Below are positions 3,888 to 58,080 of a stretch of DNA of 64,000 nucleotides, piece by piece (the stretch's first letter is position 1; the number at the start of each line of letters is the position of its first letter). The stretch comes from Escherichia coli (GTDB lineage Bacteria > Pseudomonadota > Gammaproteobacteria > Enterobacterales > Enterobacteriaceae), in the NCBI RefSeq assembly GCF_048403405.1, contig NZ_CP183129.1. One strand, written 5' to 3'. Both the position numbers and the translations under genes were made by a program. Under the pieces are notes generated by a model. That model worked only from the letters and a program-made list of their open reading frames with translations, did no database searches and had not been told where the DNA came from.

Positions 3888-4054
3888 TTTTTCTGCTCAT
3901 CATCTTGCCGTGCAGCTGGCACGGCAAGACAACCGCTCTCGGAAGATGTGCATTGAACGCTCATTCCTCCGCCATTTCATCCCGCTTTCCTGTGGTAATC
4001 TTCCTCTGAACCACCTACGATCATTTCTATAATGAATATATTGTTGAGGTATCT

Positions 4055-10015: not shown

Positions 10016-10050
10016 TGAAAAAGGCGACACATTGGCATGTCGCCTTTTTT
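10016..10050. terminator. bidirectional intrinsic terminator between ypfM (+) and acrD (-)
   Basis: A-run, GGCGACA-cattggca-TGTCGCC stem, then TTTTTT; lies 6 bp from the acrD stop. Confidence 0.75.
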
Positions 10051-24674: not shown

Positions 24675-24692
24675 TTCATTCTTAACTCTCAC

Positions 24693-24727
24693 GCTTACCC
24701 TGAATATTCAGGGTAAGCGGTTTTCCT
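24693..24727 (+). terminator. strong intrinsic terminator after maeB
   Basis: Perfect palindrome GCTTACCCTGAATA/TATTCAGGGTAAGC followed by GGTTTTCC, 19 bp after the maeB stop. Confidence 0.8.
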
Positions 24728-37534: not shown

Positions 37535-38194
37535 ATGCCAGCTTTAGATTTGATTCGACCGTCGGTCACCGCCATGCGGGTGATTGCCTCTGTTAACGCC
37601 GAATTTGCGCGTGAACTGAAATTGCCGCCGCATATTCGTAGCCTCGGGCTGATTTCTGCTGATTCCGATGACGTCACCTACATTGCGGCTGACGAAGCGA
37701 CCAAGCAGGCGATGGTCGAAGTGGTGTATGGCCGCTCGCTGTATGCGGGAGCTGCACACGGACCGTCACCGACTGCCGGTGAAGTGCTGATTATGCTCGG
37801 TGGGCCAAACCCGGCGGAAGTGCGTGCTGGTCTGGATGCGATGGTTGCGCATATTGAAAATGGCGCGGCTTTCCAGTGGGCTAATGATGCGCAAGATACG
37901 GCATTCCTGGCACATGTAGTTTCGCGTACCGGTTCTTATCTCTCATCAACCGCCGGGATCACGCTTGGCGATCCGATGGCGTATCTGGTGGCACCGCCGC
38001 TGGAAGCGACCTATGGCATTGATGCAGCCCTGAAATCTGCCGACGTACAGCTGGTGACCTATGTCCCGCCACCGTCTGAAACCAACTACTCGGCAGCATT
38101 TTTAACCGGTAGCCAGGCAGCGTGTAAAGCAGCCTGTAACGCCTTTACCGATGCAGTGCTGGAAATCGCGCGTAATCCAATCCAGCGTGCGTAA
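37535..38194 (+). CDS. eutL: EutL, tandem-BMC-domain (trimeric) shell protein
   Basis: 219 aa. Confidence 0.9.
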
Positions 38195-38206
38195 CGGAGG
38201 TTGCCG

Positions 38207-38707
38207 ATGATCAATGCACTGGGATTGCTGGAAGTGGACGGCATGGTCGCCGCGCTAGATGCTGCGGATGCCATGCTCAAAGCAGCTAACGTTCGTCTGC
38301 TCAGTCACGAAGTGCTTGACCCTGGTCGCCTAACGCTGGTGGTGGAAGGCGATCTGGCGGCGTGTCGTGCGGCGCTGGACGCAGGTTGTGCTGCCGCGAT
38401 GCGTACCGGGCGTGTCATCAGCCGCAAGGAGATCGGTCGGCCAGACGATGACACCCAGTGGCTGGTTACTGGCTTTAACCGCCAGCCTAAGCAACCCGTA
38501 AAGGAACCCGACGCGCCAGTTATCGTCGCGGAATCTGCTGACGAGTTGTTGGCGCTGTTAACATCAGTACGTCAGGGAATGACGGCAGGAGAAGTGGCTG
38601 CCCACTTTGGCTGGCCGCTGGAAAAAGCCAGAAATGCGCTCGAACAGCTCTTTTCTGCCGGGACGTTACGTAAACGCAGTAGTCGTTATCGTCTCAAGCC
38701 CCATTAA
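38207..38707 (+). CDS. eutK: EutK, BMC shell protein with C-terminal helix-turn-helix-like extension
   Basis: ATG 38207: MINALGLLEVDGMVAALDAADAMLKAANVRLL... (166 aa). The track start is TTG at 38201. Confidence 0.88.
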   Translation: MINALGLLEVDGMVAALDAADAMLKAANVRLLSHEVLDPGRLTLVVEGDLAACRAALDAGCAAAMRTGRVISRKEIGRPDDDTQWLVTGFNRQPKQPVKEPDAPVIVAESADELLALLTSVRQGMTAGEVAAHFGWPLEKARNALEQLFSAGTLRKRSSRYRLKPH

Positions 38708-38752
38708 CCTGTCGGAGGTGCCGGGTGTCCTACAACACCCGGCATTAACATC

Positions 38753-39805
38753 ATGAAAAAGACCCGTACAGCCAATTTGCACCATCTTTATCATGAACCC
38801 TTACCCGAAAACCTGAAGCTCACGCCGAAGGTCGAAGTGGATAATGTTCATCAACGACAGACAACGGATGTCTATGAACATGCTTTGACAATTACCGCCT
38901 GGCAGCAGATTTACGATCAGCTGCATCCGGGCAAGTTTCATGGTGAATTTACGGAAATTCTACTCGATGATATTCAGGTTTTTCGTGAATACACCGGTCT
39001 GGCGCTGCGTCAGTCGTGCCTGGTCTGGCCGAATTCGTTCTGGTTTGGCATTCCGGCGACGCGCGGTGAGCAGGGATTTATCGGTTCGCAATGTCTGGGA
39101 AGCGCAGAAATAGCGACGCGCCCTGGTGGAACCGAGTTTGAATTAAGTACGCCGGATGATTACACGATCCTTGGCGTAGTGCTTTCTGAAGATGTCATCA
39201 CCCGTCAGGCTAACTTTTTGCATAATCCGGATCGGGTATTACATATGCTGCGTAGCCAGTCGGCGCTGGAAGTGAAAGAGCAGCATAAAGCCGCGCTGTG
39301 GGGCTTTGTCCAACAGGCGCTGGCGACATTTTGCGAGAACCCGGAAAATCTTCATCAGCCTGCTGTGCGTAAAGTGCTGGGGGATAATTTGCTAATGGCG
39401 ATGGGGGCGATGCTGGAAGAAGCGCAGCCAATGGTGACGGCGGAAAGCATCAGTCATCAGAGTTACCGTCGGTTGCTTTCCCGCGCCCGTGAATATGTGC
39501 TGGAAAACATGTCTGAGCCGGTGACTGTGCTGGACTTGTGTAATCAACTGCATGTCAGCCGCCGCACGCTACAAAACGCGTTTCACGCTATTTTAGGCAT
39601 TGGCCCAAATGCGTGGCTGAAACGCATTCGCCTGAACGCCGTACGCCGCGAACTGATAAGCCCTTGGTCGCAAAGCACAACGGTAAAAGACGCCGCCATG
39701 CAGTGGGGATTCTGGCATCTGGGGCAATTTGCCACGGATTACCAGCAGCTGTTTGCCGAGAAGCCGTCGTTGACGCTGCATCAGCGGATGCGGGAATGGG
39801 GGTGA
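38753..39805 (+). CDS. eutR: EutR, AraC-family activator of the eut operon
   Basis: 350 aa; C-terminal AraC HTH (region around [33 protein letters not shown]). Confidence 0.9.
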
Positions 39806-55096: not shown

Positions 55097-55124
55097 AAAA
55101 ATGGCGCCCATCGGCGCCATTTTT
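55095..55124. terminator. bidirectional intrinsic terminator between pdxK (+) and crr (-)
   Basis: AAAAAA-ATGGCGCC-catc-GGCGCCAT-TTTT; perfect 8-bp stem. Confidence 0.8.
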
Positions 55125-58051: not shown

Positions 58052-58080
58052 AAAAAAGCACCTGAAAAGGTGCTTTTTTA
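58052..58080 (-). terminator. intrinsic terminator after cysK (hairpin usable in both directions)
   Basis: Minus strand: AAGCACC-ttttc-AGGTGCTT followed by TTTTGTGG, 22 bp after the cysK stop. Confidence 0.75.

Follow-up and report, generated by a model that had tools for sequence, protein, structure and literature searches.

The 45-nt gap between eutK and eutR of Escherichia coli probably holds a split (noncontiguous) ribosome-binding site (RBS) of the type known from phage T4 genes 25 and 38, judging from its own sequence and from that of its counterparts in related bacteria. A Shine-Dalgarno (SD) sequence lies farther than about 15 nt from the eutR start codon in linear distance, no SD is present at canonical spacing, and a hairpin fills the interval between the two. 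With the hairpin taken out, the remaining spacing is 8 to 11 nt among the relatives compared, against 5 to 11 nt in T4, and compensatory changes within the stem are found among those same relatives. The anatomy of the site, its conservation, the covariation of its stem, and the reciprocal distribution of SD sequences can be observed directly in the genomes. From these we infer that the distal SD is the one engaged by ribosomes, with the hairpin remaining folded as they initiate.

The gap between eutK and eutR

The window, meaning the whole 64-kb stretch of DNA that was analyzed, takes in the distal part of the eut operon of E. coli. Its list of open reading frames (ORFs) gives eutB, eutC, eutL, and eutK, followed by eutR, with hemF and amiA located beyond eutR on the opposite strand. 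The identical sequence in RefSeq carries the annotations eutK and eutR. The intergenic gap between them (Table 1) is wholly covered by the span that a first-pass annotation had marked out for its stem-loop. The eutR ATG is the earliest possible in-frame start past the eutK stop, and the N terminus of the protein, MKKTR..., aligns from residue 1 among relatives. An in-frame start farther upstream was considered and rejected: the frame contains none of ATG, GTG, and TTG in E. coli, and other species have hairpins of 24, 26, and 27 nt, lengths that disrupt it.

Table 1. Features in and around the eutK-eutR gap, in window coordinates
Feature	Position	Strand	Description	Basis
eutK ORF	38201-38707	+		ORF list
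eutK stop TAA	38705..38707	+	Constant 6 nt 5' of the distal SD in every clade species	
Distal SD GGAGG	38714..38718	+	Adjoins the 5' base of the stem	Anti-SD duplex scan
Hairpin 1	38719..38744	+	5' arm 38719-38728, loop 38729-38734, 3' arm 38735-38744	
Single-stranded tail UUAACAUC	38745..38752	+	A/U-rich, from hairpin base to AUG; effective SD-AUG spacer	
Candidate helix 2	38751..38796	+	UCAUGAAAAAGA at 38751-38762 (including the AUG) with UCUUUAUCAUGA at 38785-38796 (codons 11 to 15, HLYHE)	
eutR CDS	38753..39805	+	350 aa, AraC-type activator of the eut operon	ORF list, RefSeq

The most prominent feature of the gap is a hairpin, referred to here as hairpin 1. The first-pass annotation had described a stem-loop composed of GCCGGGTG (38720-38727), tcctacaa, and CACCCGGC (38736-38743) between the eutK stop and the eutR ATG, and the sequence is as it was written there. 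The 8-bp stem that it counted, ending 9 nt before the ATG, is the core of a longer one. Ten perfect Watson-Crick pairs join TGCCGGGTGT to ACACCCGGCA around a 6-nt loop, CCTACA, and the full stem ends 8 nt before the ATG. Hairpin 1 alone has a predicted folding energy of -18.6 kcal/mol, with pair probabilities of about 0.9 to 1.0 in the predicted ensemble. Folded within a 76-nt context, the region has a z score of -3.6, and none of 200 shuffles folds as well. The same 76-nt fold offered an outer helix between CUGUCGG (38709-38715) and codons 4 to 7 of eutR, which was discarded because it is lost when more downstream sequence is included and does not recur across species.

How unusual is such a stem? 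The window contains 6 loci with a perfect stem of 10 bp or more and a loop of 3 to 8 nt, compared with a mean of 0.43 expected from 30 dinucleotide-preserving shuffles of it. The others lie at 3903-3929, 10020-10047, 24692-24719, 55097-55124, and 58052-58079. The hairpins at 10020, 55097, and 58052 are flanked by an A-run and a T-run, like bidirectional intrinsic terminators, while those at 3903 and 24692 are without such flanks. Hairpin 1 is a single-copy element: allowing up to 3 mismatches, the window matches it once. It is found in 5,389 of 5,426 complete E. coli genomes, at a median of one place per genome, and in the E. coli genomes that carry it no annotation falls on it. A search of Rfam 15 returned no family at gathering score and only chance-level matches (E values of 2.7 to 6.6; 12 to 16 bits versus 37 to 42).

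What lies on either side of the hairpin? SD strength was calculated as a sliding duplex against the 3' end of 16S rRNA. On the 5' side, the distal SD is the sole strong anti-SD match within 60 nt 5' of eutR, and in E. coli its match to the 16S rRNA runs on to GGAGGUG (38714-38720). The 9-nt window CGGAGGUGC, whose 3' end is 31 nt before the ATG, forms a duplex of -13.2 kcal/mol; the best site 3 to 12 nt from the E. coli AUG reaches -1.7 kcal/mol. Along the linear mRNA the SD-AUG spacing is 34 nt (G38718 to A38753), which is too far to function, and looping out the hairpin reduces it to 8 nt. On the 3' side, positions 38747-38750 of the E. coli tail are unpaired with a probability of 0.98 to 1.0 in the predicted ensemble. 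An effect of the stem-loop on eutR translation initiation had been favored over termination in the first-pass annotation, alongside a possible role in RNA processing or stability. The sequence supports the effect on initiation, but the GGAGG 5' of the stem and the lack of a proximal SD had been overlooked. Many E. coli genes initiate without an SD, so the missing proximal SD is on its own no proof that the distal one is used.

Two G-U pairs may extend the E. coli stem into the last GG of the SD, with predicted probabilities of 0.79 and 0.54. Such an extension would partly mask the SD. It is seen in E. coli and the Citrobacter freundii group and is not conserved, being missing from Salmonella and Klebsiella, for example. 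A mini-ORF in the gap (38725-38748; GTG UCC UAC AAC ACC CGG CAU UAA; 7 codons) was also set aside. Its GTG at 38725 sits 6 nt past the distal SD and its TAA occupies 38746-38748; it is absent from Salmonella and Citrobacter, its start lies inside the stem, and it is probably fortuitous.

How would a ribosome initiate at such a site? In the split-RBS model, folded hairpin 1 would protrude from the 30S subunit as a side arm, outside the mRNA track. Once it is looped out, all that would lie between the start codon and the SD:anti-SD duplex is the 8-nt tail (8 to 11 nt across the clade described below), a distance at which initiation can function. The hairpin would then be a required structural spacer, with a role that is permissive or positive rather than simply inhibitory. 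If the stem were melted or mutated, the SD would be left 34 nt away and EutR synthesis would be expected to fall. One further aspect of the geometry concerns ribosomes that are finishing eutK. The base of the stem is at a fixed distance, 11 to 12 nt, 3' of the eutK stop. Given the general footprint of the ribosome, one that terminates on eutK at this distance from the stem should cover the SD and not unwind the hairpin, which suggests that, even when operon transcripts are being translated, the stem keeps its fold.

eutR is transcribed from the inducible promoter P1 and from P2, a weak constitutive promoter that precedes eutR (PMC5821096). If P2 transcripts were to start downstream of 38714, the split-RBS model would be restricted to transcripts reading through from P1. 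A promoter consensus scan of 38000-39200 gave no match. By eye, TATCGT at 38687-38692 is a weak -10 candidate; most relatives have TATCGC, and it is hence not conserved.

Conservation and covariation among relatives

eutR loci were collected from 63 species genomes, and 8 more were picked for the identity of their EutR protein, without regard to what lies upstream. The layout of SD, hairpin, and AUG is present in about 40 species of Escherichia, Salmonella, Citrobacter, Klebsiella, and their relatives. It recurs in the clade in which EutR shares about 77% or more of its residues with the E. coli protein, with one exception, locus L069 (78%). Members of the clade are Escherichia, Salmonella, Citrobacter, the Klebsiella oxytoca group, a Klebsiella-like metagenomic locus, Pseudocitrobacter, Phytobacter, a Pluralibacter metagenome-assembled genome (MAG), Intestinirhabdus, and two more lineages. 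In all of these the order of elements is the eutK stop, a 6-nt linker, GGAGG (or GGAG), a gap of 0 to 1 nt, the hairpin, the tail, and the start codon. The block TAA-N6-GGAGG is conserved without indels among clade species. GGAGG is invariant in an alignment of 25 sequences, and the two most divergent lineages (L067 and L068) have GGAG.

The dimensions of the site are also conserved. Among 32 species, the SD and stem are 0 to 1 nt apart, the stem has 7 to 12 bp, and the tail has 8 to 10 nt; the raw SD-AUG spacing is 34 to 38 nt and the hairpin-excised spacing is 8 to 11 nt. The same layout, with tails of 8 to 10 nt and excised spacings of 8 to 11 nt, is found in Salmonella enterica, the Klebsiella-like metagenomic locus, Phytobacter, and two further lineages. 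In most Citrobacter and Klebsiella the excised spacing is 10 to 11 nt, which is the long end of the functional range. Throughout the clade, the tail keeps to 8 to 10 nt while hairpin length ranges from 24 to 77 nt. The 77-nt hairpin belongs to Intestinirhabdus alba (L028, 1410-1503), where it occupies the same place (1415-1491) and has a predicted energy of -50 kcal/mol. The raw spacing in I. alba is 86 nt and the excised spacing 9 nt, with the SD adjoining the stem base and a tail of 9 nt. By its appearance, this hairpin has a further palindrome inserted at the apex of the ancestral stem.

Is it the sequence of the hairpin or its pairing that is maintained? The 32 species contain 23 distinct hairpin sequences, which fall into about ten sequence types. 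A MAFFT alignment of the whole gap placed the upper stem out of register between lineages, and pairs were therefore counted on an arms-only alignment made of the first and last 10 nt of each hairpin, with pairs 11 and 12 and the loops omitted. In this alignment, 94.2% of cells are paired, compared with 34 to 46% when the 3' partner is slid by 1 to 3 columns. Four pairs have changes on both sides, and pair 7 is A-U, C-G, U-A, or G-U depending on the lineage. The covariation score is 0.421, against a shuffle mean of 0.207, and is reached by none of 500 column shuffles. Between Escherichia whittamii and E. coli, a U-A pair and a C-G pair replace one another by a double change (U-A to C-G). Compensatory changes occur even in pairs that are otherwise invariant, yielding GUCGG/CCGAC in Phytobacter and GCCGA/UCGGC at locus L068. 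Loop sequences vary freely and the upper stem is not conserved; only the lower CCGG/CCGG pairs are.

On this comparative evidence, selection maintains the pairing of hairpin 1 and not its sequence, and the hairpin is real and under strong selection. G-U pairs are frequent. These would be A-C mismatches on the complementary strand, which favors the sense mRNA, rather than DNA or an antisense RNA, as the functional form. As to origin, the hairpin could equally have been adaptive from the outset or have begun as a tolerated palindromic insertion between SD and AUG that later became indispensable.

Where is the SD in bacteria that lack the hairpin? Within the clade, the best anti-SD site is 31 to 37 nt upstream at -9.5 to -13.4 kcal/mol, except in L067 (-6.6) and L068 (-5.6), and the proximal region typically gives -1.7 and never anything stronger than -5.2 kcal/mol. 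Outside the clade, most genera have their best site 3 to 10 nt upstream at -5.4 to -15.2 kcal/mol and are without such a hairpin, a reciprocity that should be taken as a pattern and not as a statistic, the species not being independent samples. The genera with a proximal SD are Buttiauxella, Hafnia, Morganella, Brenneria, Dickeya, Pectobacterium, Lonsdalea, and Samsonia. In Pluralibacter gergoviae (L043) the proximal site is no more than modest (-6.5 kcal/mol), and at L048 none is stronger than -3.9 kcal/mol.

Three loci are evolutionary intermediates in the region about 60 nt 5' of the eutR start. Yokenella (L030; EutR identity of 71%) has a distal SD and a degenerate hairpin plus a proximal GGAGG. 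L070 (74%) has a distal SD, a 9-bp hairpin, and a proximal GGAGG. L069, the exception mentioned above, has kept the hairpin and lost the distal GGAGG, and its proximal site is GGUGGAG.

The start codon and rival readings of the hairpin

The eutR AUG is itself probably held in a second, weaker helix, which is predicted to form with codons 11 to 15. The two arms of this candidate helix 2 make up an inverted repeat with complementarity at 11 of 12 positions. In folds extended farther downstream, helix 2 has a predicted energy of -9.7 kcal/mol and pair probabilities of 0.87 to 1.0. The motif ATCATGAA appears twice, 40 nt apart (38750-38757 and 38790-38797), and its core, TCATGA, is self-complementary, so that the direct repeat doubles as the inverted repeat forming helix 2. 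The ATG in the second copy is out of frame with eutR.

Pair counting gave no covariation signal for helix 2 in either direction, both arms being nearly invariant. Codons 11 to 15 have the lowest synonymous diversity of all 5-codon windows in eutR, 0.021 compared with a gene mean of 0.407 and with 0.153 for the next independent window (37 distinct clade sequences). Such conservation at synonymous sites indicates that the constraint acts at the nucleotide level. Helix 2 is weakened in L065 and L067 without clear compensation. With its AUG paired in this way, the whole site may be a poor initiator. A 30S subunit tethered at the exposed distal SD would wait for helix 2 to open, and this wait would keep EutR output low, as would fit a regulator produced from a weak constitutive promoter and from operon read-through.

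Could hairpin 1 serve the stability of the mRNA rather than its translation? It might be a stability or processing element, in which case the GGAGG would be incidental and eutR would initiate without an SD. As a 3' stem it would block exonucleases and stabilize the eutS...eutK message, or as a 5' stem it would protect a processed eutR message; either way, it would set the ratio of structural-gene to regulator expression. The stem is GC-rich and very stable, lacks a U-tract, and occupies an intercistronic gap. It thereby resembles the intercistronic stabilizer hairpins known from malE-malF and puf. A barrier that is purely structural would likewise be expected to have a conserved stem and a loop free to vary, and eutR mRNA is subject to decay by RNase E (PMC8565329). 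This reading leaves unexplained, however, the invariant GGAGG at 0 to 1 nt from the stem, the 8- to 10-nt tail that persists despite hairpins of 24 to 77 nt, and the proximal SD of lineages without the distal SD and hairpin. We consider it unlikely that stability or processing takes the place of a split RBS. The two roles do not exclude each other, and hairpin 1 could hold a second role in mRNA stability.

Another reading makes hairpin 1 and helix 2 together a translational damper, in which the SD is held away from the AUG or the initiation region is crowded, with the result that EutR is scarce. EutR is indeed a low-abundance activator, and its level matters for its positive-feedback loop and for adenosylcobalamin competition (PMC5821096). 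In the predicted E. coli ensemble the SD is partly paired and the AUG fully paired, and the codons that pair with the AUG region are those under exceptional synonymous constraint. On the other hand, folding of hairpin 1 shortens the effective SD-AUG distance and so should help initiation, and the G-U extension that would mask the SD is not conserved. A damper also has no need of an excised spacing of 8 to 11 nt or of a strong GGAGG. Helix 2 may well damp translation, but as an element separate from hairpin 1. A joint damper strikes us as quite improbable.

A more elaborate version of the split RBS, about which we are decidedly skeptical, would make the eutR start a two-part translational control module. 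In it, a 30S subunit tethered by way of the hairpin would sit beside an AUG locked in helix 2, and either the opening of that helix or the intactness of the hairpin would be under the control of a signal. Candidates for the signal would be ribosomes terminating on eutK or the nucleic-acid-binding C-terminal domain of EutK. If true, this would place a post-transcriptional arm on the EutR positive-feedback loop, which governs how E. coli and Salmonella use ethanolamine and control virulence genes.

Might the hairpin be bound by a trans-acting factor that governs eutR translation or mRNA localization, the C-terminal domain of EutK being one example? EutK carries a PF16365 EutK_C domain at all loci examined, and the hairpin keeps its fixed 11 to 12 nt from the eutK stop. 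The lack of conservation in the loop and upper stem makes sequence-specific recognition unlikely, though, and lineages without the split layout (L069 to L071) have EutK_C too. There is very little chance that this is the explanation.

The least credible reading is that hairpin 1 acts on transcription, as a terminator, attenuator, pause site, or palindromic operator, or that it is a dispersed repeat such as REP, given that no species has the U-tract of a terminator, that the element is single-copy both in the window and in E. coli genomes and has no Rfam match, and that pairing, including G-U pairing, is conserved where a DNA operator would call for sequence. To its credit are the GC-rich dyad symmetry after a stop codon and the first bases of the hairpin, GCCGG.TG, which presumably resemble the start of REP elements. 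That the stem-loop has no U-tract and is unlikely to be a terminator had been recognized in the first-pass annotation, and the lack of a U-tract extends from E. coli to every relative: the tails are A-rich, reading UUAACAUC, UUAAAAGAUC, or AUAAAAGAUC. A terminator scan of 38000-39200 found no terminator-like site. An intrinsic terminator was rejected on these grounds, and a REP/BIME or other dispersed repeat was rejected on the grounds of copy number.

Known systems and significance

For a hairpin between SD and AUG, reviews cite only two phage T4 genes (PMC3014915, PMC7297116). In genes 38 and 25, SD and AUG are 22 and 27 nt apart, respectively, and the hairpin brings this spacing down to 5 and 11 nt; mutations that destabilize the stem lower translation, and the structure is confined to close T-even relatives (PMC3014915; PMC7297116). 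The eutR site shares much with genes 25 and 38. Its linear SD is too distant, at 34 nt, the T4 values being 27 and 22 nt. The interval is taken up by a stable hairpin, with the SD and AUG outside the stem, and the effective spacing is 8 nt (8 to 11 nt in the clade) compared with 11 and 5 nt. As at the T4 26-25 junction, the element is intercistronic and directly past the upstream stop codon, and as in T4 it is present in close relatives while distant ones have contiguous sites.

There are differences as well. Unlike the phage structural genes, eutR is a cellular chromosomal gene for a transcription activator. Hairpins of the eutR clade are longer and far more stable than those of T4 (10 to 12 bp and about -19 to -25 kcal/mol; 77 nt and -50 kcal/mol in one species). 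Its SD is a full GGAGG, and its start codon is apparently also masked by a second helix. The T4 cases are supported by mutation and probing, whereas the eutR site is a prediction from sequence analysis. A literature search found no description of the hairpin or of a split RBS in eutR, although an earlier mention in the original Salmonella papers is possible. Our preferred reading of eutR is that it adds a cellular member to the rare class of split RBSs and carries a candidate AUG-masking helix as well.

What other precedents are there for a folded hairpin in a binding site? According to Sacerdot et al. 1998, as summarized in PMC7297116 and PMC3936740, the ribosome accommodates an unmelted hairpin in the binding site of E. 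coli thrS. Like eutR, thrS is a chromosomal E. coli gene with a stable hairpin in its RBS. As those summaries describe it, the thrS hairpin is 5' of a normally spaced SD, divides that SD from a single-stranded standby region, and is an operator bound by ThrRS. The eutR hairpin, unlike that of thrS, lies between SD and AUG and has no known protein partner. Intercistronic stabilizers and REP elements are similar to the eutR element in being GC-rich stems without a U-tract between the cistrons of an operon; unlike them, it is single-copy and geometrically locked to an SD and a start codon.

[quoted passage not shown] Helix 2 resembles these systems in that it is predicted to pair with the AUG, and the exposed upstream element could hold a 30S subunit until helix 2 opens. 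The case for helix 2 is drawn from thermodynamic prediction and synonymous-site constraint. The eutR element would differ from standby systems in being a bona fide SD acting by way of a rigid hairpin and not an unstructured tail.

Why would a split RBS in eutR matter? If the reading is correct, this arrangement is one that bacteria themselves use in their chromosomes and are constrained by. The hairpins of eutR, including the natural 77-nt variant, would make a ready-made series for finding the size limits of a side arm on the 30S subunit. The expression of eutR has hitherto been discussed by way of promoters P1 and P2 and one small RNA that acts on the 3' coding region. That sRNA, MavR, targets the 3' part of the eutR coding sequence and not the eutK-eutR hairpin, and a link has been drawn between EutR and the regulation of virulence in enterohaemorrhagic E. 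coli (PMC8565329).

There are consequences for sequence annotation too. Predictors of RBS strength or start sites that ignore structured spacers would score eutR as SD-less. Some assemblies already have eutR called too long, its start wrongly extended into the hairpin by the gene caller; at L065, the start was placed at a TTG within the hairpin, 21 nt 5' of the ATG.

Some related observations were made on the proteins. The eutK stop of E. coli shares a reading frame with the eutR ATG, 48 nt away, and no other stop lies between them (38705-38755). A protein search returned E. coli entries named EutR that have an additional bacterial microcompartment (BMC) shell-protein domain (P0057 and P0078), as well as N-terminally extended EutR calls, one of 359 aa (P0001) and one of 357 aa that starts from a TTG within the hairpin (P0013). 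The BMC-domain and extended entries could be EutK-EutR read-through or fusion variants, or else gene-calling artefacts.
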